64,000 nt of DNA, from positions 1 to 64,000 of the forward strand of contig NIVC01002221.1 of the NCBI GenBank assembly GCA_002269645.1, written 5' to 3'. The stretch comes from Macrostomum lignano. Its lineage: Eukaryota. Below the pieces are notes generated by a model. That model had not been told where the DNA came from and did no database searches. It saw only the letters and a program-made list of their open reading frames with translations. The translations under genes and the position numbers were made by a program. Numbering within the stretch: position 1 is the stretch's first letter; each line of letters starts with the position of its first letter. This document shows, piece by piece, positions 15,471-36,410 of the stretch.

Positions 15471-16826
15471 CAGGGGAATGCCTGTTATCTTTCTGAAGGC
15501 TTTATTTTGTTGTCATTTTGTTAATTTTGGAAAAAAAGAGATTTATAGCGAACGTCTTTGTCCGTGACAATTAATTTTACTAGAATAAAGTGATTTATAA
15601 AACTGAAGAAGGAATTGGTTCTTATGAAAATGTGCTTTTGTAATCTACTTGTATGAATAATCTTTGCTCCTTGCTTATTGGGGAGCGCACTAGATTGCTA
15701 GTTGTATCGAAATCTAGCTGGTTAACTGAATTGTTTTCGAGTCCTTGCCGGTAGGGTGCCTGATGGCTGTTGGGTAGGCAGTGCGACTGGGCGCGGATGA
15801 TGTGGCCTGCCAGCTGAAGTCGTCGACGGTGTAACCGGACGTCTAGACAGATGGATCAGGCCGGCGCGGCGATACGGCGATGAAATTTAATCTTCGTAGT
15901 TTGCAGAGACTTTATGTGCAGATCAGTTTTAGCTAGCTGAAATTCTAGCTAAATGCGAAGCTTTACATAGCAAATTTTTATTGTGAGCTGGAAGCATGAT
16001 ATAGATGAAAATTGACATAACAATGTAATCAATACTACCTCTGTGTGCTTTCTGCATGGAAATGTTGACGTTTTGGATTGTGAAACCGCGATGGACGAAA
16101 ATTCCCTTGCCCGTCTTTTTGCTCCGGGCTTGTGTGCCATAGAATGAATCGTATTATATTACTTAAAGTAGACGCGCTATTGCCCGGTCTTCAAGCTTTT
16201 GATCACGCTCACGAGCTGACGAGTTCGCTGGAACCGCATCCAGGCCAAATCATCCACGTTAAGAATTGTACTGCCTACAGCCGCGATGAGGGAGGTGCTG
16301 CTGCTGACGTTACAGGTGCTCTACCGGCTACCGCTAAGCACTGCACAATGCGTTTACTGCCGACTGGCTGACGCCGGCTGCCCAATGCGGTAGGTGGCGT
16401 AGCCTTCTATTCGCACTCAAGCTTTATGCTCACCATGTGATGACGTTGGTCTTTATTTATGATCTGTTGAAAGCGTAATCTTTGTTTTGCTTTGCGATAG
16501 AAAATAACAAACACGTAGTTTCAGTTACATAAATTTGATAGAGGAAATAGCTTTATAGAAACTTTAACCCAGGCCAAGTATTAATTTTTTGTTGTGTTAA
16601 TTTTAAACTTAACAGTAGAACTACCAAGAGGGGGGAAAAATTTCCCCCCCCCCCTGACAATTTTTTTTGCTGCGCCGGAACGGAGCAACGCAGGCACACG
16701 AAATTCAAGAACACGGGCTAACTTTTTGTTGCGCACCTTCTCAAACAAGAATCAAGTCGCCAGCCCTTCGGACCGTCGAGATATTCGACGATTCTGCCAG
16801 AAGGTCGGATTTTTCCCATAAGCGCT

Positions 16827-17131
16827 AGTAGTATAGAAAAAGACGCTTCTAGACCCAGAGCACTTTTTAATGGCCGTTTTAAGGGTCTAGAGGGGGGACA
16901 CGGGGGGTAAATAAAAAAACACATCTAAACACCATTAATACATCTAATCACCCATAATCACCCCTAACAATAAAAATCACTTCCCAACACTTCCAAACAC
17001 TCCCTAACACCCCCCTCGCGTCCCCCCTCTTAAGACCTTACAAACGGCCATTAAAATAAGGTCTGATCTAGAAGCGTCTTTTTCTATACTACTACTCTAT
17101 AACCCCTTGCCCGCGCCGCAGGCGCGAAGGG
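16827..17131 (+). repeat. Left terminal inverted repeat, containing an internal fold-back
   Basis: Matches the reverse complement of 35665-36043, with divergence in the middle. Arms 16827-16908 and 17009-17096 are themselves inverted copies. Confidence 0.9.
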
Positions 17132-17150
17132 TCTTTTTCTGTTACTAAAA

Positions 17151-17465
17151 ATGACCCGAGTTTACACCTTTTCTGTTAGTGATACTTTTGAGACTGTTGC
17201 TAAAAATGCAGAGATAATAAAACAACATATTTTGAATGGAATAATTGATGAAGTTTATTTAAAATATGACGACAAGCACGACCTAAAACTTTATCCATTA
17301 GAGCTAGATGAGATGTATGATTTAGAACAAGAGGGTGAGTTAATATTTCAACTTGGAGATTATTTAAATTCGGATGATTGGGAGGTTAGATCAACAGATT
17401 CCGAATCAACAAATAGTTCATATGAAACCAGTGATTCAGAGAATGAAAGTGAAATTTTTATGTGA
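17151..17465 (+). CDS. Polinton hypothetical protein, 104 aa, acidic C-terminus
   Basis: ORF with AAAATG start right inside the left TIR; no recognisable domain. Confidence 0.6.
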   Translation: MTRVYTFSVSDTFETVAKNAEIIKQHILNGIIDEVYLKYDDKHDLKLYPLELDEMYDLEQEGELIFQLGDYLNSDDWEVRSTDSESTNSSYETSDSENESEIFM

Positions 17466-17538
17466 AAAAAATATTAAAAAAATGAACTATTATTCTATAA
17501 CAGAAACGACATTTATTGTGAAAAATATATATAAAAAA

Positions 17539-17706
17539 ATGAAGGTAAACTATTCCTACATCGGAAATGTGCCGATTAATGAACTTAATGAAAATTTAAG
17601 TTTGATAACAGTTGAACAAATGTCAATAATAATATTAGTAACAATTATAGTAATAATATTGTTTTTGTTTGTTATAAAAAATTTACTACCATGTTGTCTC
17701 AAGTAA
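17539..17706 (+). CDS. Small single-pass membrane protein (55 aa) ending in a dicysteine motif
   Basis: AAAAAAATG start at 17539; hydrophobic stretch IIILVTIIVIILFLFVI followed by KNLLPCCLK. Confidence 0.45.
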   Translation: MKVNYSYIGNVPINELNENLSLITVEQMSIIILVTIIVIILFLFVIKNLLPCCLK

Positions 17707-17716
17707 TTGTTCGAAC

Positions 17717-19319
17717 TTAGTTCGCTGATATTAGTTGGTTCTCATAAAACGAACCCAATATTTCTTCACCGTCCTTATCAGCAATTATATAGGTTGTAGG
17801 ATTGGTATTTAAAACTTTACTGATAGTAAATTTCTCACTTATCTTCCAATATCCTTTTCTTCCTTTTTCAAACTTATCTTTCCATTTATAGATATAAACA
17901 GAATCACCAACCTTAAAAGATTTCTTTTTATTTTTTTCAAATTTTCCAAAAGTAACTTTAACGTTTTCAGGATTGTTATAAGCTTGTTGAGGAGTCATCT
18001 TTATCGCCGAATGATATGAATTGTTATAATCTTTCACTACGTCTGGTAATATTTTTACCCATTTTTGGTTACCATTAAGACTAAACTGAAACCATAATTT
18101 CTTACCTAAAGTTCTATTAAATCTTTCTATTAATGCGTTTTTACTCTCTCCATAAATAGAATAAATTTTATTAATATACTCCCCATTCGCGTCTTTTTTT
18201 CTTTCTTGTCCTTTTTCAAAATGATATAATTTATACATATGAGGATTGTAAAATTCTTTTCCTTCGTCAACACACAAACGTTCGCTTTTTTCTCCAAGAC
18301 TTCTAAAAGCAGCAGCAACCTCCTCTCCCTTTTTGGATTTTAAAGGAACAGCCCACGCGTATCGAGTAAAACCATCTAATATGGTTAAGATATATTTATA
18401 TCCCAGATCTTTCGGCATCGACATTAAATCAGCATACCAAATTTCATTCTTTTTGAAGTTCATGATTTTTCTATAAAATTTAGGTTTTCGATATTCTTTA
18501 TGAAGAATCTTTGCCTCATCAGAACTTAACCCACTGCCACTTAATAGTAAACACTCAACACAATTATTTCCATGTTGATTATAATTAATTCCCAAACCAA
18601 ATTTAACTTTAGATTGTAGAATTTTTTTAACCATCCACCTAGTTAATCTTTGCCCTACCGATAATCCCTGCAAGTTATCTAATCCTTGAATCATTTTTTG
18701 ATCGGCTTCATGTTTTAATCTTAATGCTTCCTCGGGTGAGTTCTTATCAGCATCTCTGTATGCTAAGTCATGATAGTATGCTAACCAATCAATACCGTTA
18801 ATGGGAATTGAATCGGCTTTTGGAGTATTATCAGGATTTAATCGGAGATCGAGTCGAGTCAACCCGGCCTTTATACCTTTGCTTTCACAAAGGAGTAGAC
18901 TGTGTCTTAAGCTATCATAAGGATTGACTAAGTCCTTCAAGCCCACCAGCGTACAGTCGTTGCATCTCAACCATACTCAAGTCATATGAGGTTAGGTTTT
19001 CGATTCACTCTTGCCCATATATTTATCTTCAAGCTTGTTACCGTTGGGAAGAGGAGTTACCTCTGTTCCTTTGTAATCTTTCGAAAACAAAGTGGTACTT
19101 GAAGCTTTAGGGGATTGAGTGAGCGGCTGGTGTTGCCACTAATAGTGACTAGCAGTAGCTTTGCATCTACCACTCGGGCACAGCTCGAGCTCCACCCGCG
19201 AAGTTGTAAGATGGGATGTGTAATTCATTTGTATACCTTCCAGTAGTAAAGATTGGTGGTAAGCTTGTTAATCCTTTTTGAACATCTAACAATCCTCCTT
19301 CAAACACTATTTGGCTCAT
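17717..19319 (-). CDS. Parvovirus-type phospholipase A2 domain fused to a retroviral-like (rve) DDE integrase; exons 19319-19194 and 18859-17717 joined by removal of a group I intron (422 aa spliced)
   Basis: Exon 1: MSQIVFEGGLLD...ELHIPSYNFAG. Exon 2: TRLDLRLNPD...PINGIDWLAYYHDLAYRDAD...ADQKM (PLA2 HD motif), then the integrase triad WYADL / LCVDEGKEFYN / IERFNRTL and the C-terminal FKVGDSVYI...GSFYENQL region. The two exons are in frame. Confidence 0.9.
18860..19193 (-). ncRNA. Group I self-splicing intron, IC1-like, 334 nt, no internal ORF
   Basis: Minus-strand pairings: P1 CGGGU/GCCCG with a U-G wobble at the 5' splice site; P2 AGUGGUAG/CUACUGCU; P3 CACCAGC (19132-19126)/GCUGGUG (18950-18944); P4 UCACUC/GAGUGA; P5abc with AGUACC...GGUAACAAGC and a GAAA L5b loop; P6 AUC/GAU; P6a AACC/GGUU with CCUAA..UAUGG; P7 GACUGU (18958-18953)/ACAGUC (18903-18898); P9 CCUUUGU-GAAA-GCAAAGG; terminal G at 18860. 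Confidence 0.93.
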
Positions 19320-19917
19320 TTTTAATAGCCTTAAAAATACATGAAAGCACCAATTGTTTTGCAAATTCTTCTATGGTTGGTTGTTTATCATTTTTTGAAA
19401 TATTATCTACAGCAACTAAGTATCTTTTATTTCTCCAATTTTCAGACTTTTTAATTTGTTCTTCATCGCGATAATCAAAAGATGAAGCAGGAATAAAATG
19501 GTCAACATGCAAAACACCAATATAATCTTTTGGCACATAATAATGTTTTGTGAAATTTAACCAATCAGTAAAGAATTCAATTGAGCAACCAAGGTAATCA
19601 ACAGTATGATTATTTTTTCGAGCATTATTAGATTTTAGAAGAGAATATATTCTATTTCGTGTGTTTAAAATAAGTTTGTAATTTTCATCAGTTAATCTTC
19701 TTTCATTTTGATATTTTCTGCGCCTTTCTATATTATTTTTATCATATTCTTTTTTCCATTGAAGCTTATATTCACGATTTTTCTCATACCATTCTTTATC
19801 ATACTTTCTCTCACAAGGTTTGCAAATACTATAATATCTATTTTGATCTCTACGAAATCTAAAATAATCCAAAATTTTCTCTTCTTTACATTTATTACAA
19901 ATTTTTGTTTCATCCAT
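19300..19917 (-). CDS. Free-standing HNH-family endonuclease with N-terminal Cys4 zinc finger
   Basis: CNKC...CKPC at the N-terminus; YLGCS...LHVDHFIP...NWRN..YL...DNISKNDK matches the HNH (H-N-N) pattern. Its stop overlaps the start of the PLA2-integrase gene. Confidence 0.8.
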   Translation of the reverse strand: MDETKICNKCKEEKILDYFRFRRDQNRYYSICKPCERKYDKEWYEKNREYKLQWKKEYDKNNIERRRKYQNERRLTDENYKLILNTRNRIYSLLKSNNARKNNHTVDYLGCSIEFFTDWLNFTKHYYVPKDYIGVLHVDHFIPASSFDYRDEEQIKKSENWRNKRYLVAVDNISKNDKQPTIEEFAKQLVLSCIFKAIKNEPNSV

Positions 19918-19945
19918 TTTATAAAAAAATAAATTTAACAATTAA

Positions 19946-20624
19946 TTAAACACCAGTATGTCCAGCAGCTTTCGCAGCAGCTAAAATAAGTTTTCGTGGT
20001 GTTTTAAATCCATCACCAACAGCTGGTTTGTTATTTATAGAATTAACAATCCATTTATACAAGCTGGTATTTTTAACAGCTCCTCCTAAATCATCATAAA
20101 AAATTCTAGCACTTACTAAATCATTCTTAGTATAAAAATCAGGGTTAAACTTAACCCTAGGGTTAGTAATAATTCTATATGCTCCGCCCAATTCTCTATA
20201 TAGTTCATTTCGATCTTTATCAACGTTACCAATTCGGTAATTATTATTACCTAAATCTGTCACAGCAATACTAGCTGGTACTCTTGGAAATTGTTTAACT
20301 TCTTCACCCCTTTCTGCAGCCCTAATCTCTGCACGTCTAATCTCTGCAACTCTCAATTGAGCTTGATCAACATCATAAGTAGGCGGCTCATCTAAAAGTT
20401 CATCCTCTTTTGGCTCCGTATTTTTAGCAATTTTTGTTATCTTTATCTGTTTTTTCTAGTTCACTAATTTTCCCAGTAATAGGATTAACAAAAGGAGCAG
20501 CAAATCTTTCACCCGCTAATTGTATTCCTAACTTTCTTTTTTGTAAATTTCTAACAAAATCAGAATATCTTTGCTTCTCTTTATAAATCGCTAACTCTCC
20601 ATCAACGTCCATAAATTGACTCAT
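19946..20624 (-). CDS. Polinton hypothetical protein (one gene broken by a frameshift near 20420)
   Basis: ORFs 20424-20624 and 19946-20356 are adjacent on the same strand, and the intervening sequence continues as coding-like acidic/proline text. No domain recognised. Confidence 0.55.
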
Positions 20625-20658
20625 TTTTTAACATAAAAAACTTTTTTAACTTAAAAAA

Positions 20659-22128
20659 ATGGCTGAAACAAAAACTATGTGGAGTGATAAATTTCATTTC
20701 AAAAAGCACCGACAGTATATTAATGAGGTCAGAGCAAGAGATTTAAATTATACCCTACCAACAAGTGATAATTCAAATAACTTTACTACTGGAACGGTAA
20801 CTTTTGACATCGGCGCAACCAACACTATATTGGATATGAAAAATGCGTTTTTCCGCGTTAGATGGTTGTATACTAGAAATGATGGAACTGCTCTTGCAGC
20901 CGGAGATATCGCAGATCGATCCGGAATAATAATAGAAAATGATTGGTTTTATAAATGTTTTTCCCAAGCTCAACTAACTGTTAATGGTGCTGAGGTTGAG
21001 ACATCATCAAACCCCGCAGAGATTAATGGAGTTTTGAAACATTTAAATTATACTTATTTATCAAAACAAGTTGGTGATAATGTTGGGTGGATGCCGGATA
21101 AAGGTAACGGTCAAGCAGTAGTTTTCCCTAATGTACAAAACGCAGCCGGTGCAGATACTGCAGCGCTAATTGTTTACCTTAATACAAACATAGTTCCAGT
21201 TGTAACCACTATGACTAATACAAAAGATATTAATACTGGTTTTATAGATCGTCAGAATAAATTCCCAGTCGCGGTTTTAACCACAGCAACAGCATATGAG
21301 CAGGACTTTTCAATCTTCCCGCTATTTGGGTTCTTCTCACCAAATCGGGTATGGAAAGGATTAAAATTTGGGATACAGTTGCAAATATCTGGTGGATATC
21401 AGCCTAGGATACTTTATGGAACCTCAATTTCAACCGATATAGCAGTTCGTATAGATTCAATTCAATTAGTCGTACCAACTATTGAGGTAACAGCCCCACT
21501 TTTAAAACACATCGATAATCAGTTAACGCATGATCAGGAAATATTTTATTTGAATCGTCGACATTTTATGCGAACCATTAATAATAACCAGGATTCATTC
21601 CAGTGGCAAATACTGACATCAAAACGTCGGGTGAGATATATTTTTGTTTGGTTTAAGATAACAAATAGAAGGAGTAAAAGAGCAAATGGGGATTTATATT
21701 GGCTTCAATCCGGTGCCATAGCAGAACAAGCAGCCACCGCAACAGACAATGCGGCTGCAGCTATTAACGAGTTTAATGTTCAGAATATCCGCCTGCAGGT
21801 TGATGATCAATATTATCCGTTAAAGATCCTCTAATCTAAATATAGCAAATAATAATGTTAATGATTTTAAAAATATTATCAAGATTATGCTAAAAATGAA
21901 GCGTATGCCGTCCCTCAGTACACACCCACAGAGTTTCTAAACATTCATCCAGTGGTTGTTTATGATCTAACGGCACAGAAAGAAAACGTAGCCAATATTG
22001 GACTTAATTATATGTTAGAGATTAATAAAACCGGTAATCAGGCACTTGACGCCCACGTATTGTTTCTAGAGGAATATATGTCAATTGCTAAAGCTGATGG
22101 CACGATTGTTCGGGACGCGCCACTTTAG
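20659..22128 (+). CDS. Major capsid protein (double jelly-roll, Polinton PY/hexon-like); frameshifts near 21820-21870
   Basis: ORF 20659-21834 has TVTFDI...LDMKNAFF, FSQAQLTVNGAEVE, FPLFGF, WQI...VRYIFVWFK and NIRLQVDDQYYP. It continues in a shifted frame as YYQDY...FLNIHPVVVYDLT...AHVLFLEE to TAG at 22128. Confidence 0.85.
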
Positions 22129-22212
22129 TGTCGCAGTGCAAAGCACGTCGCACCATTGTAAAATGAGTGCAGGTCTCCGACCGTCGCGCCTATTTAAATT
22201 ATTTCTTTAAAA

Positions 22213-23012
22213 ATGGTAAAGGCAAAACACAATAAATATTTCCAAATGATCCTTTTCTTTGTTTAGTAATCGGAGGATCAGGTAAAGGAAAAACACACTT
22301 TGTTTACGATTTATTAACAACAGATGGAATGTTAGACTATAATAATTTAATAATTTATACTAATAAACCTAGAATAAAATATTATGAATTTCTTAAACAT
22401 GGATTAAAAAACAAATTAAAAAAAGATGTCTTGTTTAGAATGTTAAGAGCATATGAGCAATATGAGGATGATGACGAACCGCGATTTAATCTAGCAGACA
22501 TTGAGGATTTATGTAAAACAATGGCACAACAGCCAGAAAACATCACCGATCGCCCCGAAGGGTCGCGGACTTCGTCCGATCGAGCCCCAACTGTTAGAGT
22601 ATCAACCCGATTAGCCTATGATCAAATTCCAAAACATGATAAAACACTAATTATTTTTGATGATTGTATTAATGACGGTGATCAAGAATTGCAAAAGGAA
22701 ATTTTTGTTAGTGGTAGAGGAGATGGAATTGGAGCTTTTTATCTTACTCAATCCTTTAGAGAATTAGAATCGATTATAAAAAAGAATGCTAGCTGTTGTG
22801 TAATGTTTGATTTAGATAATTATGATTTACAAAATATACACGCTAGATTTAATCCCGGATTGGATGCAAAACCATTTAAAAGTATGTGTAAAAAAATTTG
22901 GGATGATAGCCAATACAAACATATTTATATCAATCCGAGGTTAGAAAGGAAACATAGAATTTTAACAAATTTGATAAAAGAAGATAATGAGGAAGAAGAG
23001 GATCGTGCATAG
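22213..23012 (+). CDS. A32/FtsK-like DNA packaging ATPase; 1-nt frameshift near 22240
   Basis: MVKAKHNKYF, then PNDPFLCLVIGGSGKGKT (Walker A at 22272, in frame with ORF 22329-23012), LIIFDDC (Walker B), SGR (arginine finger) and FYLTQS. Confidence 0.92.
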
Positions 23013-23064
23013 CACGCGTACCTTCGGAACGCGGACTTCGTCCGATTAATTTCCCACTATAAAA

Positions 23065-23849
23065 ATGACTACAAATTTAAATACTATAAAACAATTGGTA
23101 GATCGAACTAATTCAAAATTTAGTACAACATTACAGTTTATAATGACAACCAGCGAGCAACGGATTCAATTGCGCGATCCATTACAACTTGATCAAAGCC
23201 TAAGTTATCAAATAGGTTTAATACTATTTTCGGTTTTCAACATGCCTCAATTAATTAATGCAACAAATAATCAATTTAGATATTCTAAAGATTCCGGAGC
23301 CAATTGGACAACATTTAGCGTTAACCCAGGAGCGTATAGCTATACTGATTTGAATGCTTATATAGAAGGAGAATTAACATCTAACGGCGATTGGGTAGCA
23401 GGCGCATTGTTATAGGTGTTGATTTACCGTCTGGCAGATTCACACTATCACTAGGATCCGGATATCAGGTTGATTTCACAATTGCAAATTCACTCAGAAT
23501 CATACTTGGATTTAATTCCCGAATAGTTACCACATCAAGCACCGGTGATACAGTTGGAAATATAGAGGGTGGAGTAAATACAATTAATATAACAACCGAC
23601 ATTTCAAACGGTGGTTATATAACAGACGATAACGGAGTTTTGGTTCAACGTGGAATTATTTATTCAATCCCATTTCTTGCTGTTCCAATTGGAGAGAAAA
23701 TGATTGTATCACCTCAAACCCCAATATATTACCCATTAAATCAATATAATGTTCAATCAATTTATATTAGGATTGTAGATGAAAGCGATAGATTAATAAG
23801 TTTTGGTGGGCAGTCAATAACAGTGATTTTACGTATAAAACAGGTTTAG
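23065..23849 (+). CDS. Minor capsid protein (penton, Polinton PX); frameshift near 23405
   Basis: ORFs 23065-23415 and 23391-23849 give DPLQLD...YQIGL, NATNNQFRY, PGAYSYTDLN, SLRIILGF, IIYSIP...PIYYPL...IYIRIVDE..RLISFGG..ITVILRIK. Confidence 0.85.
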
Positions 23850-23859
23850 TACTGTAAAA

Positions 23860-24069
23860 ATGGGTAATCGAACAACATGTTCGCGTGCAAAGCACGATAA
23901 TAATAATAATTTAATAAAAAAACAATCAGAAAAAGTTAAAAAAGCTGAAGATAATTACGAACTAGAACTAGCAAAATTAAGGCAGTTACAAGCTGATAAA
24001 ATAAGAAAGGAATTGTTAAAACCCAAACCAACGAAACTAACTAAAACCAAGAGTTTTTCAGGAACATAA
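23860..24069 (+). CDS. Small basic coiled-coil protein (69 aa)
   Basis: AAAAATG start, Lys-rich, packed between the penton and protease genes. Confidence 0.55.
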   Translation: MGNRTTCSRAKHDNNNNLIKKQSEKVKKAEDNYELELAKLRQLQADKIRKELLKPKPTKLTKTKSFSGT

Positions 24070-24070
24070 A

Positions 24071-24514
24071 ATGACCATGACGTGGGATGATTTTAAACAA
24101 CGATATGGAACAGACACAACAAGCAATATCGAATTAACAAATTGGGCGAGGCAGTTAAAAATAAAACCATTTAGATGTGTTATGCGAGATGAGATCAAAG
24201 ACTTACCACAATATGGATCTTACATTGTTAATATTGAAACAACAAAAGAAAATGGTGTTCATTGGTCAGCAGTTTATTCAAAACCAAAACTTGTTTATTT
24301 TTTTGATTCATACGCGCTTCCTCCGTTACAGGAAATAAAAGACAAATTTAATCATACTAAAAATCGTTTATGTGGAGATCATCACGAACAGTTTCAAACC
24401 TTTGATAAAAGTTATTGCGGACAAGCAGCGTTATATTTTTTATATCGACTTTCGAATGAAGCTCGTGTAAACCACAAAGTATTTAAGACTATCATGCAAA
24501 GCATGCGAACCTAA
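24071..24514 (+). CDS. Adenain-like cysteine maturation protease
   Basis: Catalytic motifs in order: GVHW (His), FFDSY (Asp), QFQ (oxyanion Gln), YCGQ (Cys). Confidence 0.92.
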   Translation: MTMTWDDFKQRYGTDTTSNIELTNWARQLKIKPFRCVMRDEIKDLPQYGSYIVNIETTKENGVHWSAVYSKPKLVYFFDSYALPPLQEIKDKFNHTKNRLCGDHHEQFQTFDKSYCGQAALYFLYRLSNEARVNHKVFKTIMQSMRT

Positions 24515-24551
24515 GGTTCGATTTTAGACTCTATAAAATAGACAGTAAAAA

Positions 24552-26419
24552 ATGATATTTTCTGGAACACCCTCATGGAACGGAACAACAAGTACTGGTG
24601 GTGGTACTCTGGTGGAATAAGTGTTACCTTCGGAGATAATCGATATATTAATGAAGATGAAGGTTATAAAAAAAGTGAAGTTGATACTAAACTAAATTTG
24701 AAACGGAATGTTGCAGATTCCTATACCAAAACTGAAATCGATACTTCATTAAATCTTAAAAGAGATATTAGCGATTCATATACAAAATCAGAGGTTGACA
24801 CTGGGTTAAATTTAAAAAGAGATATAACTGATTCTTATTCTCGAACTGATTCTGATTCGCGTTATGTTCAAGCCACCGCAACCGGAACTTTAGATATGGA
24901 TAACAATCGAATTATAAATGTTGCAATTACAACGAATAACTCGGTAGTTGATAAGAACTATGTCGATAATCAGGTTGGTAGTCGTAACGGCAATATCAAT
25001 ATGAATAATTTTAAATTAACAAATTTATTATTTGGAACAGAGGCCACAGACTCGGTCAATTTAGGGCAGGTCAACGCTCGAGCTAATGTAACCGACGCCG
25101 ATATTTTTGCCACGCCGCTTACATCAAATACTTCAAATCCAGATGTTGTTCTTACAGCATCCGAAAATACCAACGATGCTTTTCGAGTTGGAGATGGAAG
25201 CCTTGCGACACAATGGTCACCAAATACCGGAACCACAACCAATATGGAAATTCAATTTGAATTTTTAGGTTATAATCGAAGAATAAATGAATTAAGAATT
25301 ACAGGCAGCGCAACTATTGATATTCCATCGGGATGGTCGGTTCGTGCAAAAAATGTTGCTACCGATGCATGGACGGTATTACGAACGTCGGGATCACCAA
25401 TTCAAGCAACTTCATTTGCGTTAACTAATTTAACGGTTAATTTTTGGAAATATTATAGCGTTTTATTCCCAACTGGTGGCACCGCTACACAACCTATCGA
25501 GGTTCGTCTAATACAATTATTTGAACACCGAGTTGAAATTCAAGATCTTAATTGGCCAAATGAAATACTATCTGCTACCCCGCGAGCGTACGTAGATCAG
25601 GTAGCAACTCCAACTTCAAATGGTAGAATGTCTGCCGGTGATAAAAATAAATTGGATAATATTCCCGCGATTGATGCCGCATTATTCGAGCCAGTAATTT
25701 GTAATTGGACTGGATATCAAAATCCAACAACCGCTGGAGATATATATCCAGTTGGTTCTTTAATTGGCGACGCTTCTTATATCGATTATCAAAATGGAGC
25801 TAGAATTACTCGTGAAACTGGTGGAGTAAGTGGGGCATTACAATTCAATTTCACACATTTTCAAAATATATCTGCGTCTTTCTATTTCCGAGTCGCTAAT
25901 TCTACAGGAGATGGTGCAGATGCGGTTTGGTTTTATGCATATTGTCACGAACGCCCAACAAGTGAAGGTGGGACTGGATTAACAACCGACGCCGGATTGA
26001 TAGTTTTTGCAAGTGAGTGGCATGATAAATTTGGCGTTGTATGGAGTAATAAAAAATCAGACGGATCAAGCCGCGCGGATGTTAATACTGACGCAGATCA
26101 AACGGTAGATTATGCAAATATTGATAACGGCGATTGGCATTTATTTGAAATTAATATTTTAAATCAAAGGGTTTGGTACATTACAGTCATACAATGTTGC
26201 TGGTGATTCTTTACCCTCATTGGACAGAACGTTTTCACATATGATAGTGGAACTTGGGGAACTTTAGATAAATCTGGAACCCTTATGGGTTTTGGTGCTC
26301 GAACTGGAGGATCGGATGCTGCACATTTTATTCGTGGCGCAGCCGTTTGTGGTAGCACATCGTTTGGTTATGTTTTTCCTTCTACCGCTTATTTAGAAAA
26401 ACCACCCGTACAAATCTAA
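24552..26419 (+). CDS. Fibre / receptor-binding protein; frameshifts near both ends
   Basis: Three LNLKR(N/D)..DSY.K.E.DT repeats, DMDNNRIINV and NMNNFKLTNL..DSVNLGQV fibre motifs, a discoidin-like ASEN...AF..GDG..ATQW segment, and a lectin-like C-terminus (FYFRV...GADAVWFY; shifted frame GFGARTGG..H) ending at TAA 26419. Confidence 0.7.
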
Positions 26420-26434
26420 ATATTTATATATAAA

Positions 26435-27333
26435 ATGGCTTTTAGTAGAACTCCATCGATGCGGCAAAATAATGTTATTATTCCTATTCCTAAACAAGAA
26501 TCAAATATAAAAACATTCAAATCTCATACCAAATTTTTATTTAGTACTGTAAATGTTCAGGATAACAAGAAGCTTCAAGAATTAATTAAGTTATTAAAAA
26601 ATCATATTATACTTCAAGAGTTTTGGAAAATAGGATTTAAATGGGAGAAAAAAGAAAGAATCACTCCAATACAATACCTATTGAGCTCGGGACAAATACC
26701 CAAAGAGCGCGGGGAATTCATTTTGGTGCTATTAAAAATAGACGAAATGTCGGTGTCTGAAGCAGATAAAAGGGAACGTGACATTTTAACCAACGTAAGG
26801 TCACATGTTAGTAATGTTGATCGAATAAATTATGATTATGATTTATATACTAAAAAAGTAAGAAGAATTTCAAATCATATCAGAAATATGGACTTTTTCA
26901 ATATTGGATTTGGAAGCTTATCATGTTATGTGTAATCGTTTTAGGTATTTTACAATCTATTCCAACTCTTAATTTATCTCAATTATTTTTAGGTATTTCA
27001 ATTGGCTCAATATCAGGTTTTGAATTGATCAGGAACTTATCAATACTTTTAGCAATTAAATTATATCTTAAAAAAAGAAAGGAAAAATATAAATCTTTAA
27101 GAGATGTTGCCAAGCAATATAAAAATCAATTATATTTATATGTGCAAAAAATATTGGATGACGGAGAGATAACGATTCATGAATTATCAACCGCGGTTGA
27201 GTTATATGAAAAATATTTAAAAGATAGAAATAGAATTTTAGATGTTGAAACTTTTACCGATATGGAATTAAAAGAATTGTTTGGACAAACCCAAAGCTCC
27301 ACCGATAGAAACATTAGGTATTTACGAACCTGA
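26435..27333 (+). CDS. Polinton membrane-associated protein(s): ORFs 26435-26935 and 26923-27333, possibly one frameshifted gene
   Basis: Hydrophobic helices (VIVLGILQSI...LFLGISIGSISGF...LSILLAIKLY) followed by KY...A...KILDDGEIT..E....E.YEKY, a pattern typical of a conserved Polinton/adintovirus membrane protein family. Family assignment is from memory. Confidence 0.55.
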
Positions 27334-27362
27334 AACTATTGCTACTGGCACAAAGCCCGCGG

Positions 27363-27875
27363 TCAGGAAGTGCTGTAGAACTTAATGTTGTTTAATTTAT
27401 TTAATGCATATGTTATATATTCTTCCCAAAGTGGTAACTCTCTTCTGATCCTAGGTTTAAATTTTTTATCAATACATAAAAATTCCAATGACTTTTTCAG
27501 TAACATTTCGTTAGGTATGTTACCTATCCTTATAAACTTTGTATTCTCTCGAATAAGAAAATTGAAATAATATCCAACTAAAATTAAAATCCTTTCGGAG
27601 TCTTTCGAACTTAATCCCTTTCCTTTATTTAAATGGAAAAAGTTATTATATAAATAAACATTATTTCCGGGAATTAAAATTGGATCAGAAATGTCTCTTG
27701 TAAGATTTCTTAAAATTGTGTTTTTAAAATAGTAATATGAGTTTTCAATCTTTTTTGTTTTTTCAAATTGATATATTTTAGAACATGAATAACACATATG
27801 ATATATATCTCCGTTTGCTGTTTGCCCTCTGTGCATAGTCACATTACATTTATTACAAACATAAATGTCTTTCAT
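27363..27875 (-). CDS. Hypothetical protein with N-terminal zinc ribbon (CNKC...CYSC)
   Basis: 170-aa ORF with AAAAAATG start, convergent with the preceding gene. Confidence 0.6.
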   Translation of the reverse strand: MKDIYVCNKCNVTMHRGQTANGDIYHMCYSCSKIYQFEKTKKIENSYYYFKNTILRNLTRDISDPILIPGNNVYLYNNFFHLNKGKGLSSKDSERILILVGYYFNFLIRENTKFIRIGNIPNEMLLKKSLEFLCIDKKFKPRIRRELPLWEEYITYALNKLNNIKFYSTS

Positions 27876-27901
27876 TTTTTTGTTATTTTTTTAGATTAAA
27901 A

Positions 27902-28230
27902 ATGGAGAGCTGGTTCAAAACCGATTCTAATGTGATTAATTATCTCACACCCAATATGTTGGAGAATAAAGAATATAATATTGTATGTTTGAGACAGGTT
28001 AAATTTATTGGCTTCAATCAATATTTTTACAATTAGATGGGCAAAAAATTTTATGTCTAAGCGGAGATGATGTTAAAAATTTTCCTGTTTTAGTTATTAA
28101 TAAACCTAAAGCGTTTGTTATGAAATACAGCAACGAGGGTGGATTGCAATTTAAACTAAAACAAAAAAATAAAAAGAGTGACAGGACTGTAAAATTGGCT
28201 TCGGTTTGGGAGGATGACGACGAAGACTAA
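27902..28230 (+). CDS. Small hypothetical protein with acidic tail (frameshifted)
   Basis: Starts MESWFKTDSNVINYL at an AAAATG and ends ...SVWEDDDED-stop; the frame is broken in the middle. Confidence 0.45.
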
Positions 28231-28245
28231 ATTTTTTATAAGAAA

Positions 28246-28581
28246 ATGGATACGATAAAAATCCTTATCACTAAAGAGCGTGAACTTAATGATATTAATA
28301 AAAAAATAAATATAATTATATCTCAGAAATATCATGAGTATGGGGACGATATGTTTCCCATCCGATATGAGATAGATAAAAGAAAACGTTTTTTAAGACA
28401 AGATATTGTTTATGCTGAAATAGTAATTGAAATTGAAATAGATAGATTGGTTAGAAAAATAAAAAAACTTAGGAAAAAAATAAAGGATTGTTTAAGTTAC
28501 CCTGACGACTGCGAGGAAAATTGGCCTTCAATATTATATGAAATCGAAATGGATTTATGCTTAAACAATTACATGCTTTAG
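28246..28581 (+). CDS. Hypothetical coiled-coil protein, 111 aa
   Basis: ORF with AAAATG start; no domain recognised. Confidence 0.55.
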   Translation: MDTIKILITKERELNDINKKINIIISQKYHEYGDDMFPIRYEIDKRKRFLRQDIVYAEIVIEIEIDRLVRKIKKLRKKIKDCLSYPDDCEENWPSILYEIEMDLCLNNYML

Positions 28582-28609
28582 TTTTTTTCCGCCCGAAGGG
28601 TCGCGGATT

Positions 28610-31600
28610 TTATCCGATAAGTAATTTTTCTGTTAATCTCTTCCAGTTATTCAAGACTTTTTCCTTATTTAATTTTTTAAGTTCTTTTGGAAATGTTGAA
28701 TAATAATTATCTATATCTTTTTCATATTCTAGAAATGTATTATATTCACAATCACATTCGGATTCACAATCACAATCGTAATAATAATTATTTATTGCCG
28801 CTTTGTATTCATTATATTTACTTATTATATCTTCTTTTTGTTTTTTATCTTTTATCATATTTTTTATCTCTTCTTTTAAACCATATGGATATGTTTTAAT
28901 TTTATCATCTAAATATCTTTTATCATCAAATGGACTTAATGTTTTTTTATCTGTCTCGATGACAAACATCTGATGCTTATCTGAATTTAATCGATATTGT
29001 GGAGCATGATAATTTTCAATTGTATTAAGGTAATCTAAAAGTACGTTTTTATAATCATCAAATGTTATCTTTTTACTGCTGCCTTGATACCCCTTTTATT
29101 TTTTTTACCTCTCCCTCCTGTCCTAAAACTTTAAATGCATAGCATTTTGATCTTATTGCTATAAACTCGGTTATGATTTTGCTATTTAATTCATCTTTCA
29201 TTTTAAGTACAACTTTTTATTTTGATTCGATTTTAAGGATGGTTATCCGGATAGTCGATGTGTCCAATGTATCCTTAATTTTTTCCATATCTTTATAGAC
29301 TTCTGGTGTTTCAACCTTAAATACCAAACTGTCGGTGTCTGCATATATTGGATAGTTATCTGGCCATGTTTTATTTATAACATCATAATAATATTCATAC
29401 ATTACCAGCTTTGCATAATCTAAAACAACCATTCCAATAAATATTGGTTTAAGAAATTTTGTTGTTTTATTTCTCATATGAATACCCATAAAGTTATCAT
29501 CAAATTTTATAAAATCTTTAAAGTTAGGTTTTGAGAAATATTTCTTTGCTTTATCAATATCCTTTTCTAAATGGAATTGGGTTCTATCTCTAATATTTTC
29601 AACCGTTTTTCCATAAAAAGCATTATTCATTAATTTCCAATAATCTTTCTCAAAATTTGTTTTTGACATCTGTCTCTGATTTGAATTAAAGTCAATATAT
29701 TTAGCTAACCAATCTTCCTCAATAAACGATATTGTTCGATGTACTTTAGACACTTTTAATCCCTGCTTTTCATAAAATTGTAGAAGCTTATAATGCACTA
29801 CATAGTTTTTCTTATCATGTAAATTTAATATTAATTTTTTTGTTGCTAGATGTTTTGCATTATCTACTTTAAGATAATCTTTTTGTGTTTGTGATAAATC
29901 ATCTTCATTAACTGAACAATGCTCTGGAGCTAAAGGATATTTATATGTTTTTGCTTTTGCTTCCCGAGTATATTGCAAATCCACTTCTACGATACAGCCC
30001 CTTCCTTCGGGAATATTTTTGTAATAATCGGGGTCATCTTCCCATTGGAAATCAGCTATTGGTAATTTTTGTTTCATACAACCACCGTATAAATTGTTTG
30101 CATCTAGATATAATACATATGATGATTTTTCTTTTTTATTATAATTTGGTAGATATTTATTATTTACTTTAGTATATCTATCTCCTAGTACCCCGAGAAT
30201 CCGCCGCGAATTCCTCTCTCAATCATTAACAACATATCATGATCAGTTAGTAAATCAATCTCAACATCTGTGTATTTCAAACCGCAAGCCCATGTTAATC
30301 CGGTGCACTGAAACAATATGCGGGATCAATTTTAAAATTCTCATATGTATGATTCCTAAAGTTTTCAAATGCATCAGCTAATAGGAGAACATCTGCTTTA
30401 AGATATAGATTATGATAATCTTTAAATGTTTTACAATTAAAATATTTCCATACTTTTTGAGCGTGTTCATAATCCGATTCACTTATATTTGTTTGTGATA
30501 ATGTTGAATAAAACTTTTCTATGGGGGTAATTCGGTATGAAAAAATACGTCTTCAGATGTTACATATTCATATGGATAGATGCCCTTACGAGTTAATAGC
30601 ATTAGTTCTTCCTCGGATAGTTTTTCCTTTTTGAAACGATTCAATAGTATTGGAAAGTTTTTCTTTACTATTTCTAAATCCCATGGTTTTGGAACTAATG
30701 ATGAAACAACATTTGCTAAAGATGTTGATAAGAATCTCAAGGAATCTAGAAAAACTAGATGGGAGTATTTCTTACCATATGTTATTGATATGTAATTTTC
30801 TGATGTTTTAGGTAATATATTTATTTCATATTCATCCTTTCCTAAATGAAGCAATTCTCGAACTAGGAAATGAAAATCATATCCGGAACCATTATGAAAA
30901 AATACTGGTATTTCCTTACATCCTTTTCCTTCTTTTGCGTTACATGATCTACATGCTGCCCCTCGATAAATTCCTGTTAGATGACAATGTTCTCGTATCT
31001 TATTTTTCTTACTTAAATATCTTTTGCACATAAACAATTTGTTGCATTTTTATAATTGTCTCTATCCTTATCTGTCATAAATATTTTTTGATAATTTATC
31101 ATATTGATTTTGAATATATTCAAATACATTTACTAATGATTCTGCCATGTGCTTAGCTGCATCTTACCGTGGTAAGTAATCATCCTTGATTTAAATATAT
31201 GATCGCTACGGAGTGTACATATATACAATAACTATTAGGAAACTGTTGTGCTAATTTTTTTGTGCATTCACCATCAGATACTGTCTGTGATTCTTTTAAG
31301 GGAACATTTGTTGCTTCAAAATCAGCATATATTACTATTGGTTTTTTAATTGCCATATAATGTTGTTGGAACATTAGGGTTGCATCTTCAGATGCTGGCA
31401 TTACAGCATTAGTAAATTTGTGATCTAAACAAAATCGTTGATGATTTTTAAGAGCTGTTTCATCCTTTTTAAATGTGAAACAATTTCTACATAGTGGATA
31501 TCTATTTCTATTTTCTCTTAAAAAGAACTAATGTCCTTTATGTATATATAATGTGTTTCATTTTCACGCTGCATGTACAAAAGGTCGATTTGATCTGGTG

Positions 31601-32498
31601 CTGTTATATCTGTTGCTGGCTTAACAAGATAACACCTTTTCTTATACCATTCTGGATTGGTTGAAATTTCTTCTAGATCTTTTGGTTCTTCAATTGTAAA
31701 CACATTAATATTTAAACCATTCATTTTTTCAATCTTATATATATCATCTATTGCTACTGGGTATGATATGTTTTTCATTATTATTTCATCTCATATTGTT
31801 ATAATTATATATTTTATTAGTGTGTGATTCTACTTGATTGTGATATTTATGAATTAATAAACACCATAATAAACATTTATTATCTTTATTGTTGGATTTA
31901 TAATCATTGGTGATTTAAATTTGAGCTTCATATGTGATCGTCCTTTAAGAATTTCTATGGGTGCAATCTTTACTATTGCTGAATTACAGGATACAAATAT
32001 AAACCCGGATCCGTTTTCTGTCATCTTATCTATCCATTCATCAAACTCAGCTTCTATTTGATTAAATTGATTATTGTAATTTCCCATTGATAGTAGTGTT
32101 TTATATGATTCTTGTGAAAAGTTATTTATTACTTCAATTTCTGAATTTGCATTAAGAATATTTGGTTTTTTAAATTCTGTTTCAACTTCTATTTTATACT
32201 TAATTGGCTGTCGTTTGTTATTTGGCCTTATAGTATAATTGTTTAATATGGTCTTTAATTTATCTTTCATTTGTTTAAAATATTCTTTATAATTTGTATT
32301 TATATCTATATCTATATATTACTTCAGCTCCATTTTGTCCTTGTGGTTGGGGTTATCAATATCATTTAATTGTCTTTCTAAACGTATCTCATTTTCTGCC
32401 CTAACTCTAGCTTCTATATTAGCTCTTTCTAATTCCAATTGAGCTATTAATTGCGCTCTAAGTTCAGGGTTGTCGATTTGAGCTAAAATTGCTTCCAT
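28610..32498 (-). CDS. polB: Protein-primed family B DNA polymerase (pPolB), split into several ORFs by frameshifts
   Basis: ExoI IYADFEA; REHCHLTGIYRGAACRSCN zinc/endonuclease VII-like insert; ExoII FHNGSGYDFHF; FLDSLRFL; RKGIYPYEY; ExoIII YHNLYLKADVLLLAD; motif A YLDANNLYG; motif B KLMNNAFYGKT; motif C YADTDSL; C-terminal LSPFDDKRY. Confidence 0.95.
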
Positions 32499-32582
32499 TT
32501 TATAGAATAAAATTTATATAATGTTTGAATTATTGATTTTTTAATTTTGTGTTTTTGGTGTCCAGACCCTCCCCCCAGGAGC

Positions 32583-33541
32583 CTATTCGAGATCTGCTTT
32601 TGGTAATAGCAATCCGTTTCCCATAACGTTTGAATTTAAGAAAATTCCTGAACCTGCTTTTGGTCGCATTTCGAGATATAATCCGCTTCCATCATGTTTT
32701 TCAATGATGTTAAAATCTTTTCCTAACTTATTAAAAATTTTCTGAACAGCTGGTCTAAAATTGGATCCAATATTGTCAAAAAATCCTTTAGCTTTCTCAC
32801 CCGTTTTTTCTAAAGTTTGGCCAAATTCGTGTAGTTTATCTGCGACAACTCCACTTCCTTGGGTCGTTCCTTTTAAAATTAAACCTTTTCCAGCTGCTAA
32901 TTTAGCTTCTGCATTTCTTTTTTGCTCTGCTGTTGCTGAACTACTATTAATGGTATCTATAAGTTTTTGTTTGAATTGTGCGTCCTGTGTTATTTGCTGT
33001 CTTTGAAATTCGGCCTCTCTTTTGGCTTTTTCATCCGCGGCTTTTTTGTCATTTACTGCTTTTGCAATTCCAGCCGCTCCTCCAGCGACTCCTCCAGCTG
33101 CTCCAATTCCTGCAAAAATTATTGGGAGCAAAGTTGCGAGGGTAATATACCCCCTTCTTTTGCTTTTAATTCTCCTAACTGTTTTATGTTATCATGAATT
33201 CTTTTTCCTGCTAAACCAGCTGCTCCAGCTGCCCCAAGTCCTAAAAGAATTGGTAAAATGGGTAACAACCCGCCGTCCTTTTTAGTGTGAGTCTCCAATA
33301 AAAATTTTACATCGGAGTCTGTCAGCCTATAATTTCTACCATGATTCTTAAAGGATATTGGTCTTCCTTCTTGTGCATATTTCGCAGCAAGTTTAAATGT
33401 ATTGATGTCGTAGTCAAATTTTTTGCCTAAGCGATCCAATCTTTTTAACATTGCGTGACTATGTTTATTATCGTCTAGATTTAAAGTATCTACAATTTCT
33501 CCTATAAAATATAGCCGTTTTTCGTCATTAACTGAGTCCAT
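32583..33541 (-). CDS. Virion core protein precursor with adenovirus pX(mu)-like GG-LP hydrophobic motifs (one gene, 1-nt frameshift near 33140)
   Basis: KDGGLLPILPILLGLGAAG and KEGGILP..LLPIIFAGIGAAGGVAGGAAGIAKAV, plus repeated GKGL / GSGV / GSGL / GSGI / GNGL candidate protease sites. Confidence 0.7.
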
Positions 33542-33551
33542 TTTTATATTG

Positions 33552-33962
33552 TTAAAATTTCTTTAATCCTTTTCCGCCTTTAATTGTGGTTAACATTTTA
33601 TTAAAATCCTGAATATCTTTATTACTTATTGGTGTGCTTTTCGTGGGGGTTTCTGTTGGTTGTGCGGCTTGAGTTGTTTCCTGCGCTAGTTTCAAATCTT
33701 TTATTGCTTTTATTTGTGAGAGGGTGTCGTTAAATTCTCTCAATTTCTTTAGTTCTTCTACTGCCCTCGCTGCTTCGATTCCGCCCTTTACAGCGTTTGT
33801 TATAGAACCTGCTGCAGAGCCTGCTTGGCCTATAAGACCCATATTGTCTTTAACGAAATTCGCTGCTGTACCAACCACATCAAAAAGACCCTCACCTCGG
33901 TATTCAACTGGGTCTCCTACCTGCAATTCGTTCAGATTTTGCATATGTGTAACGTGTGTCAT
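33552..33962 (-). CDS. Putative virion protein with a GEGL-amphipathic helix N-terminus (pVI-like)
   Basis: RGEGLFDVVGTAANFVKDNMGLIG, then a coiled coil and a C-terminal KGGKGLKKF. Confidence 0.55.
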   Translation of the reverse strand: MTHVTHMQNLNELQVGDPVEYRGEGLFDVVGTAANFVKDNMGLIGQAGSAAGSITNAVKGGIEAARAVEELKKLREFNDTLSQIKAIKDLKLAQETTQAAQPTETPTKSTPISNKDIQDFNKMLTTIKGGKGLKKF

Positions 33963-34405
33963 TTTTTGTTCTATTTTTAGTAACAGAAAAATTAAGTTGC
34001 AGACACTAAAGAAAAGGGTAGTGTGCAAGCATCTCGAGCGGTTTTATTTTATAGCTCTTTTTTACTCTTTTTTGTATAGAAAATAAAGAAGACGCAAACA
34101 CAAAAGATTCTCTATCCAAAAATGAACCTATGGTTCGCGGGCTGTGCCCGATGGCACAAATGGCCTGCTCCGCTGGAGCACAATGGACGCTTTTTATTCG
34201 ATGAATGGCCATTTTTCTCTCTGTCCTCGGTGCATTGTGTCTATAACAGCACATGAATTTTTCTCATAGCTTAGAAAAAATCATGTATACACTAAAAGAG
34301 TTTGGTGCACACACACACATGATTTTTTCTAAGCTGTGAGAAAAATTCATGTATACACTAAAAAGATTGTCAGTTTAATAGTTATGGAAATAGCACGCAA
34401 ATTAT

Positions 34406-35293
34406 TTACTTCTTAACCCATTTTCCTCCTTCGAACATCTCTCGGACTTCGGCGGCGCTCTCAGCTTTGTCTTCCGCGTCAGGATCTTCGTTGAAAGCTA
34501 CAATATAAAATCAAGCTTTAAAAAATATGAACTTACTTACATTACCACAATAGTGAAGCAATCACTTACTGTCTTCATACCACTGGTGAACTTGCTTTTC
34601 TTCAGGACTGCCATCTTTCAAAACCAAAGCAACTGTCTCGTGTTGCATCTTGAGAAGTTCCTTAAACCTGGCATCGTTGTTTGCCTTCTTGCAAATCGCA
34701 GCACTATAATTAATTACTATGCCCATTGAATAGGTAGAAAAAATTAAACCCGGGTATTCAAGGCAGAGTTGATAGTATTTGTTATAATCCTCAACCTTCC
34801 GGCTGGTTATGTTGAATGAGTCGGCCAGCTCTCGCTCTGTCATTCGATACTTCGTGCTTAAATAGTAGATAAGTCTACCCTGCTCAAATTGCATCATTGC
34901 CTTAGCAATCGATAGAGCTTCAATAGATGACTTTATTTTCTTAAATCTTTCAATCAAATCATGTTTGGTCGTACCTTCAAGCTTGAGACCAACGTGGGAT
35001 AGGCCTTGTGTAATCGCTTCCACGCACACACTAACTCCTCTATCTTCGTTCTCCTCTAACTTCTGATAGATTGTCTCTAGCACATTCTCCACATAACCTT
35101 TCTCTTTCCTCTTTTGGGTGGTCGGCTTCTTTTCACTCACCCCATCCAACTTTTCTAAACTATCATGTAAGGCCTCCAATTCCTTCTCCGAGAAGTCTTT
35201 AAGTCGGCAACCAATTAATGACTTATCCTTCCTTGATAAATTCGTAGCAATCTCGACAATAGATGATATCCTTGCTTCTTTCGATGATGCCAT
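34406..35293 (-). CDS. Helix-turn-helix-like protein with a 72-nt spliceosomal intron (34569-34498)
   Basis: 243-aa ORF containing MTERELADSFNITSRKVEDY. Donor GTAAGT at 34569 and acceptor TTTTATATTGTAG at 34498 join in phase 1 to give ...ED-TFNEDPDAEDKAESAAEVREMFEGGKWVKK-stop (34406). Confidence 0.65.
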
Positions 35294-35664
35294 GATAATA
35301 CGTTTGTTAGTTCTTGTAAAAGACAGATATTAGGAGTTGTGCATAAATAAGAGACTATTTGCTGTGGCTAGTTTTTTAGATTTCATCATTCTTATACACA
35401 CAATTAAAGCTTGGGGTGGAGTGCTGAAAATAATAAAAGCGCTTTTCATGAGTAAGCAACTCACCTTCCTGTTGTAGCCAGTTTGAGTCTGAGGTTTGCG
35501 CTTCGGTAAATGATGAGTATAATAGAAACCCCGAATTCCCGCGTTAGTCATTATACTGTCTGCGACCCTTTGGGGTGATCATGCAAAGTTTTTCTTTTTG
35601 TGAGCTGCTTTAAGATAGTTAAACACTGTTCCTTTTCTATGACTCAGTTTGGGTCAGACTGTGC

Positions 35665-36043
35665 CCCTTCGCGCCTGCGGCGCGTGCGAGGGTTTATAGA
35701 GAATTTGAAGTGTTAGAAGTGTTGGGGTGTGTTGGAAGTGTTGGAAGTGTTGGAAGTGTTGGGTAGAGTAGTAGTAGGGAAAAAGACGCTTCTAGATCAG
35801 ACCTTTTTTAATGGTCGTTTATAAGGTTCCAGAGGGGGGACACGGGGGGTGTGATAAGATGAGTTGGGGATGGGTTATATTGATTTTTGGTATTAAGGGG
35901 TGTTGTGGGTGATTATGGGTGATTAGATGTGTTAAGGGTGTTTAGATGTGTTTTTTATTTACCCCCCGTGTCCCCCCTCTAGACCCTTAAAACGGCTGTT
36001 AAAAAAGTGCTCTGGGTCTGGAAGCGTCTTTTTCCTTACTACT
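35665..36043 (-). repeat. Right terminal inverted repeat, containing an internal fold-back and a (GAAGTGTTG)n insert
   Basis: Reverse complement of the left TIR. Arms 35767-35850 and 35961-36043 are inverted copies. The extra GAAGTGTTG run at ~35707-35762 is absent on the left. Confidence 0.9.
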
Positions 36044-36410
36044 AACATTATCTCAACTGGTTGCTATGGGAATGCCGAGCATGATCTCAACTGGTTGCTA
36101 TGGCTTGCCGAACATTATCTCAACTGGTTGCTATGGGATTGCCGAACATGATCTCAAATGGTTGCTATGGCATTGCCGAACATTATCTCAACTGGTTGCT
36201 ATGGCTTGCCGAACATTATCTCAACTGGTTGCTATGGGAATGCCGAACATGATCTCAAATGGTTGCTATGGCATTGCCGAACATTATCTCAACTGGTTGC
36301 TATGGCATTGCCGAACATTATCTCAACTGGTTGCTATGGCTTGCCGAACATGATCTCAACTGGTTGCTATGGGAATGCCGAGCATGATCTCAACTGGTTG
36401 CTATGGGAAC
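36044..36410 (+). repeat. 30-31-bp minisatellite (CCGAACATTATCTCAACTGGTTGCTATGGCATTG-like), about 12 copies, abutting the Polinton right end
   Basis: Direct reading; it begins at the first base after the terminal ACTACT. Confidence 0.93.

Follow-up and report, generated by a model that had tools for sequence, protein, structure and literature searches.

A Polinton family in the nuclear genome of Macrostomum lignano carries a predicted self-splicing group I intron in its PLA2-integrase gene

Reviews, in the excerpts available, describe nuclear group I introns as confined to microbial rDNA and those of animals as mostly mitochondrial. The minus strand of the window (the whole stretch of 64,000 nucleotides analysed here) appears to depart from both descriptions, and it raises the question of whether a group I ribozyme can reside in a protein-coding gene of an animal nucleus, by which vehicle it came there and at which base it would be cut out.

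The intron, its element and its host

The intron at 18860-19193 (minus strand), which an earlier note had recognized from its helices, is a genuine group I intron with a complete core. The covariance-model check recommended there gave a significant match of the full Rfam model RF00028 to 18876-19177 (minus strand, 42.9 bits, E-value 2.3e-9), though below the gathering cut-off of 50 bits for this model, and therefore a standard Rfam scan misses this intron. At the gathering cut-off no match was obtained in the window; an E-value scan of 15500-40000 (24.5 kb) lost the intron match and found no further intron there. As the type to which it belongs (family A) scores below the Rfam cut-off, similar introns elsewhere may be overlooked.

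Concerning the helices, read from the sequence, P1 is formed by 19198-19194 and 19179-19175, with the terminal pair, U.G, lying at the 5' splice site, a position fixed by the intron-less alleles described below. Pairing was found for P2 (8 bp), P2.1 (6 bp), P3 (7/7), P4 (6/6), P5, P5a (7/7) with the helix of the A-rich bulge (4/4), P5c, P6 (3/3), P6b, P8 and P9 (6/6), while P5b bears a GAAA loop (19082-19079). P7 (5/5) contains the guanosine site, with the pairs G18958-C18898 and A18960-U18897 and the bulged C18959, and both the P4-P5-P6 domain and the P3-P7-P8 core are present. The receptor-like motif reported in P6a/b exists, but as a variant whose full pairing was not obtained as drawn. The fold has a z-score of -3.94, none of 100 shuffled sequences being equally stable, and the GC content of the intron is 44.9%, against 33.2% in the element. 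As previously proposed, the unspliced reading frame stops early, after 50 amino acids.

Introns of the IC1 subgroup are characterized by a P5abc with A-rich bulge, P2/P2.1, an A-rich J3/4, UCA in J6/7 and P9.1/P9.2. The description of the window intron as IC1-like holds for the periphery (P2, P2.1 and P5abc with its A-rich bulge) but not for the core, since family A has CGC in J3/4, GCA in J6/7 and only P9, without P9.1 or P9.2; the A-rich J3/4 and UCA J6/7 are present in two other types, families B and H. The combination of CGC and GCA is one that we take to be IE-like. To judge from these segments, the window intron is a ribozyme of mixed type, with an IC1-like periphery and a non-IC1 J3/4 and 3' end.

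Table 1. Features of the intron, its gene and its element (positions in the window)
Feature	Position	Strand	Remarks
Polinton/Maverick element	16827..36043	.	19.2 kb; inverted repeats of about 300 bp at the termini; this copy has several fragmented genes
Exon 2 of the PLA2-integrase gene	17717..18859	-	remaining PLA2-like domain and rve integrase, single open frame
Two extra bases relative to intron-less alleles	18860..18861	-	end in candidate terminal G no. 2; in 24/24 family A places and contigs of 4/4 runs
Pro-Gly codons of the PLA2 loop	18862..18867	-	second guide-pairing site, -8.4 kcal/mol against -8.2 kcal/mol for the true 5' site
Candidate terminal G no. 1	18868	-	homologous to the ends of B, C and H; used alone, would lead to a stop two codons later
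J6/7, P7 guanosine site (G18958-C18898), P3 3' strand, P8, P9	18876..18963	-	
P4-P5-P5abc-P6 domain	18964..19122	-	A-rich bulge, GAAA L5b, receptor-like P6a
P2, P2.1 stub, P3 5' strand	19126..19174	-	the P2.1 loop of relatives houses an Eco47II-like ORF
Intron 5' end	19175..19193	-	internal guide, G19179 pairs with the splice-site U; 14-nt P10-forming segment (P1 and duplex energies)
Exon 1 of the PLA2-integrase gene	19194..19319	-	42 codons from ATG; the last codon, Gly, provides the U of the 5' splice site; agrees with the N-terminus of intron-less alleles
Free-standing HNH/endonuclease VII-like gene	19300..19917	-	overlaps the start of exon 1; PHROG 1035, E 1.7e-11; candidate helper of intron spread

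The Polinton context already proposed for the intron was confirmed by the terminal inverted repeats and by Pfam matches to pPolB (PF03175, DNA_pol_B_2, E 6e-7) and the A32-like packaging ATPase (PF04665, Pox_A32, E 1e-6), both above the cut-off, and to the rve integrase (PF00665, E 1e-6), which lies under it. A 6-bp target-site duplication is a feature of Polintons/Mavericks; the 6-bp flanks of the window copy differ, so that this copy is without one. A capsid-like gene is a lead, with a protein-atlas score of 0.97 to capsid-bearing clusters and recognition below threshold. The protease candidate of the element matched nothing in Pfam or among PDB sequences, and the PLA2 piece nothing among PDB sequences. 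Natural intron-less alleles of the host gene match PF08398 (parvovirus-type PLA2, E 3e-8 and 3e-9), and the intron splits the calcium-binding loop, the most conserved one of the PLA2 domain.

Other observations were made along the window. Each terminal repeat (16826-17094 and 35769-36044) has a 28-bp inverted repeat at its own borders, so that inner as well as outer ends are possible, and the capsid-like (20659-22128) and pPolB (29217-32270) genes are split over several frames, by decay or long-read indel errors. Hairpin-like repeats of about 27-30 nt occur in the Polinton at 22554-22580, 23020-23046, 28592-28618 and 34126-34152, and similar pieces sit in some introns and exons, including the P5abc of loci L074, L092, L127 and L131. 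A near-perfect hairpin of 36 bp (34251-34352) has weak microRNA-family matches below cut-off, and a long PKD-domain host exon (2050-3831) has paralogues and near-copies elsewhere in the genome.

The host of the intron-bearing Polinton is an animal and the intron is nuclear. Wnt genes are animal-specific, and the genome (764 Mb) gave 86 Wnt matches, compared with none in 14 prokaryote controls. On contig C952 some 23 kb separate a family B intron (64.6 bits) from Wnt exons, two more contigs (C506 and C67) bear both a related intron and Wnt, and intron copies are found on contigs of up to 1.2 Mb. At least half of the sampled words were recovered in 19 of 23 sequencing runs, from 8 studies under one organism label; contigs from four runs of three studies equal the window intron, its 3' end included, without differences. 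The alternative that we are dealing with contaminant DNA of a virus or protist, or with an assembly error, could appeal to the missing target-site duplication of the window copy and to an assembly that is fragmented and redundant, some Wnt loci being present in 2-4 near-copies. However, the agreement between runs of several studies and the Wnt-bearing contigs make contamination or a sequencing slip very unlikely, and this explanation is largely refuted; the placement of the intron in an animal chromosome, without misjoining, stands.

Several intron types at one site and their exchange

The survey of Polinton copies suggested by the earlier note found alleles with and without an intron: 24 places of family A, at least 39 of family B and 9 intron-less loci, counts of places that overstate distinct loci given the near-copies of Wnt loci. 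Several intron types and empty alleles therefore coexist at one site. Family A, the window type, has 93-100% identity among its copies, 12 of which, including the window, are identical; 40 of 154 candidates were scored in one pass, and a further search of the genome gave no A-type core beyond the 24 places. Family B uses the same 5' site with a different core, and is about 80% identical to family A over P2, P2.1 and P5abc; its 39 distinct places were parsed among the fetched loci (L024-L036, L049-L070, L081-L092, L127 and L128), with 150 of 488 candidates scored, and more places exist. Family C consists of 3 decayed places with an A-type core, without the 5' end. Type H belongs to a second Polinton family; its intron occupies the same site, is 880 nt long and houses an Eco47II-like ORF in the loop of P2.1, a layout with which 3 of 4 further loci agree. 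The intron-less loci were found among 90 examined, 16 of which were duplicates.

Scores against RF00028 differ among these types. All 28 type H places scored (from 29,353 rough candidates) were above the cut-off, with 72.7-91 bits, and family B loci L127 and L128 reached 64.6 and 65.8 bits; when 14 same-site loci were scanned, only 3 scored, the A-type L038 and most B loci remaining without score. A search of the genome by exon codons (24 exact and 3 one-mismatch places) gave no precise intron-loss copy of family A: the only additional exact place has an intron of family B, and of the three one-mismatch places two are unrelated DNA.

Between families A and B the exon and the guide change jointly, and the sequences of P3, P4 and P7 differ yet pair. 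Around the guanosine site the trio 262/263/312 (Tetrahymena numbering) is A/C/U in family A and G/A/C in family B. Among family A copies there are six compensatory pairs, in P5b and P5c, probably from one domain exchange, and the core pairs are intact in 5 of the 6 distinct copies parsed; it should be noted that the automatic parse picked wrong P3/P4 strands in some family B and viral rows. The 3' terminal base of family B is A, not G, in 28 of 39 places, with the G-C guanosine site and the P9.0 dinucleotide retained, and A-ended and G-ended introns of this family are both present in independent runs (loose ends).

Window positions 19026-19179, compared with B and H, show P2, P2.1 and P5abc common (about 80%) to introns with different cores, and in type H a P8 like that of A is combined with a core like that of B. 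Such common peripheral domains on different cores would represent natural domain shuffling among ribozymes. One family A intron contains an unrelated insertion of 825 nt within P8 (L040:1740-2564).

We built a tree from 800 nt of exon 2 with 63 rows (23 A, 37 B and 3 empty). Neither family C nor the second Polinton family is included, nor are duplicates or loci offering less than 800 nt. On this tree 10 changes of the A label are required, of which well-supported branches force at least 7, and among eight identical exons four have the A intron and four the B intron. Introns have been exchanged between element backgrounds, although the scatter on the tree could be ordinary recombination.

Endonucleases accompany the gene and some of its introns. 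In 17 of the 24 family A loci the slot upstream of the gene is occupied by an HNH-like gene, and in the other 7 by an Eco47II-like one. The Eco47II-like ORF corresponds to PF09553 (PD-(D/E)xK, E 3.3e-6); it lies inside the intron, continuous into the core, at L074 (195-1074) and L131-L133, and is free-standing elsewhere. Its protein has 110 matches in the genome, some of them free-standing upstream of the gene, and environmental homologues of the nuclease read through into group I core sequence; the window intron itself is without an endonuclease ORF. No relative of the intron endonuclease was found in the viral contigs searched, which gave one, weak, PLA2 locus, and pattern scans for the intron returned two metagenome matches and one viral match, all due to chance. 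The presence of the same nuclease family beside and inside the intron is the arrangement proposed for collaborative homing. In phages, the available part of PMC11296320 describes a free-standing endonuclease gene beside an intron-bearing gene and proposes it as a forerunner of intron-encoded endonucleases; here one Eco47II-like family, a predicted nuclease, is in both positions within one genome. The pattern looks like that of a selfish mobile intron, and the idea that splicing gates the expression of the PLA2-integrase found no support.

Two candidate 3' ends and possible routes of splicing

Our main reading, with a probability of roughly 0.75, is that a genuine mobile group I intron, predicted to be self-splicing, lies in the PLA2-integrase gene of a Polinton family inserted many times in an animal nuclear genome. 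The intron RNA would fold, guanosine would attack the U.G site at 19194/19193 and the exons would be joined at the terminal G. Homing or gene conversion would spread the introns among Polinton copies, with the aid of an endonuclease that some relatives have within P2.1 and others directly upstream of the gene.

The terminal G itself is ambiguous in family A. The end previously assigned, G18860, has in its favour that removal to this base is in frame, but the Pro-Gly codons are lost with the intron, and the homologous end is G18868: the introns of B, C and H end right before the Pro codon, and G18868 is the equivalent base in A. Gly-Pro-Gly-Thr is retained in all 9 intron-less loci and in the 6 outside homologues that span the loop (of 7 found). 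Removal to 18868, on the other hand, meets a stop after Pro-Gly owing to the two extra bases 18861-18860. Past G18860 the guide pairs with -12.9 kcal/mol, a value equalled in 180 of 19,201 windows, and past G18868 with -11.4 kcal/mol, equalled in 447 of 19,201; G18868 has an in-register P10 of 10 bp, and G18860 a shifted P9.0 of 4 bp as well as an in-register A-U pair. Of 11 giant-virus relatives that share the J7/9 of family A, 6 have an end like 18860, 3 one like 18868 and 2 one like neither; the end type of G18868 occurs in family C too.

Tentatively, and at less than even odds, we regard G18860 as the likeliest productive 3' end of family A. Its use would give an in-frame integrase with the PLA2 loop minus Pro-Gly, while use of G18868 would give a short dead-end product; what speaks against G18860 is that it discards two codons kept by every intron-less locus and every outside homologue spanning the loop. 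Splicing mainly at G18868 is rather unlikely, but it would respect the homologous end and its in-register P10, and this end type is known in giant-virus introns. The extra bases would then be a frameshift ending the protein after Pro-Gly, with family A as a parasite and other copies giving the integrase, or with the downstream ATG at 18694 in use; as family A is found on many backgrounds, it need not serve its carrier. Such a route requires a notable coincidence, namely a chance insertion that has G as its last base, preserves the frame for a second end and gives an in-register P9.0 pair. In 18 of the 24 family A places, moreover, exon 2 has an open frame of at least 419 codons, though ancestry common with B could explain this.

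The full PLA2 loop would be kept if splicing proceeded in two steps: at G18868 first, after which the guide would dock again six bases further on, at Pro-Gly, and the ribozyme would excise the two extra bases. We consider this unlikely, although several details fit. What would be retained corresponds precisely to the two codons otherwise lost, has U as its last base and equals the first site in its pairing with the guide; the extra bases end in G; behind each candidate end the sequence pairs with the 5' part of the guide; and by inspection the intermediate has an in-register P9.0 of 3 bp. A perfect second site for the own guide occurs in none of 42 family B and H loci (2 have one with an extra wobble). 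In the laboratory, trans-excision-splicing, a reaction described as non-native, removes a short piece ending in G by means of engineered ribozymes from Tetrahymena, Candida and Pneumocystis, with a U before the piece, P1, P10 and the terminal G of the ribozyme (available text of PMC2532722). All these elements are present in family A, for which the reaction is hypothetical, and only engineered cases, no natural one, were found in the literature in the portions consulted. Furthermore, L034 and L131 have the same Pro-Gly codons ahead of any extra bases; in the decayed family C the codons downstream are similar and the extra bases are missing, so that the long guide pairing may predate these; and since all family A copies stem from one event, their occurrence in 24 of 24 places is one observation. 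The product of two steps was in no reads (four runs, at contig level). The wider proposal, of active virus-borne mobile group I ribozymes in an animal nuclear protein gene with family A splicing twice and releasing a two-base mini-intron, is likewise an unlikely one.

Quite improbable is that the intron is an inactive relic, or that it is spliceosomal; removal from the weak GT at 19195 to the AG at 18879-18878 would also be in frame, by inspection. The score under the Rfam cut-off, the unusual J3/4, the A at the end of most family B introns and the finding of unspliced sequence without junctions could suggest it. No junction across the intron was seen in any of the four runs (contig level; presumed RNA but possibly DNA, as none of the 23 runs is recorded as an RNA source of the intron), but genomic intron-less alleles were also absent as joints there, so that this test is insensitive and counts neither way. 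The intact core pairs in 5 of 6 distinct copies and the compensatory pairs in P5b/P5c speak against this reading, the equivalent spliceosomal route in family B runs into a stop (by inspection), and in coral mitochondria a group I intron that ends in A is removed exactly (available part of PMC6545197).

Comparison with known introns and meaning

The closest architecture to family A that we found is, by sequence, that of giant-virus introns in IMG/VR contigs (L095-L124), most of which lie at one common site before an F-D-G-D-E-M-N motif that we take to be of the RNA polymerase large subunit. They share P2, P2.1, P5abc and a short 3' end with GAAA P9 with the window intron, and J6/7 GCA, the A/C/U trio and J7/9 ACUC with family A, a likeness that is in part built in, since they were found with a pattern taken from the window intron. 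They differ in the host gene, in an A-rich J3/4 and in a single evident 3' end; blastn aligns only short 3' stretches (best E 1e-6), and the four scanned have 84-100 bits against RF00028. On one contig, L103, two introns lie less than 1 kb apart or within that length.

RF00028 introns were already known from elements of Polinton type that are integrated into nuclear genomes. The part of PMC12220804 available to us reports such introns, of 309-376 nt, in polinton-like viruses of a rhizarian, a chlorophyte and a cryptophyte only, in a gene for a product of about 50 amino acids upstream of the capsid gene. Unlike those, the introns described here have an animal host and lie in a PLA2-integrase gene; for the protist introns, that part of the paper gives no splice sites, endonuclease or empty alleles. 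The supposition that there was no prior description does not hold for protist polinton-like viruses; for animals it agrees with a literature search that covered few subscription papers and found no group I intron reported from their Polintons or from their nuclear protein genes. The consulted portions of PMC8502044, PMC11071296 and a nematode Polinton preprint do not mention group I introns in Polintons, and the portion of PMC12768974 concerns spliceosomal, not group I, introns with endonucleases.

With the Tetrahymena-type IC1/IE introns of nuclear rDNA there is a common nuclear location and a P4-P6 domain with P5abc, A-rich bulge and GAAA L5b (excerpts of PMC8395846 and PMC9223047); family A differs from the IC1 ones in the J3/4, J6/7 and P9 traits given above. 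Animal group I introns are listed, in the available part of PMC11835236, only for placozoans, corals and sponges and as "mostly mitochondrial". They share an animal host and a protein gene with ours, and the coral intron ND5-717 ends in A like most of family B (PMC11835236 and PMC6545197, in part); they are instead organellar, mostly of subtype IB4 and not virus-borne, according to the same excerpts.

What is new here, in the one animal genome examined, is the host compartment (an animal nucleus), the vehicle (an animal Polinton), a ribozyme of mixed type and a double candidate 3' end. Well over sixty places, in the redundant assembly, have group I introns in a nuclear protein gene of a single animal genome, a viral route of group I introns into animal chromosomes is shown, and ribozyme splicing on an animal nuclear mRNA becomes testable. 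If the two-step route were true, it would be a natural counterpart of trans-excision-splicing, and thus a new natural ribozyme chemistry, in which RNA-catalysed frame repair is required for an intact PLA2-integrase. One genome also displays the stages of the life history of such introns that are usually inferred across species, with empty alleles and the endonuclease beside the gene, inside the intron or lost, together with common peripheral domains on different cores and A-ended variants.
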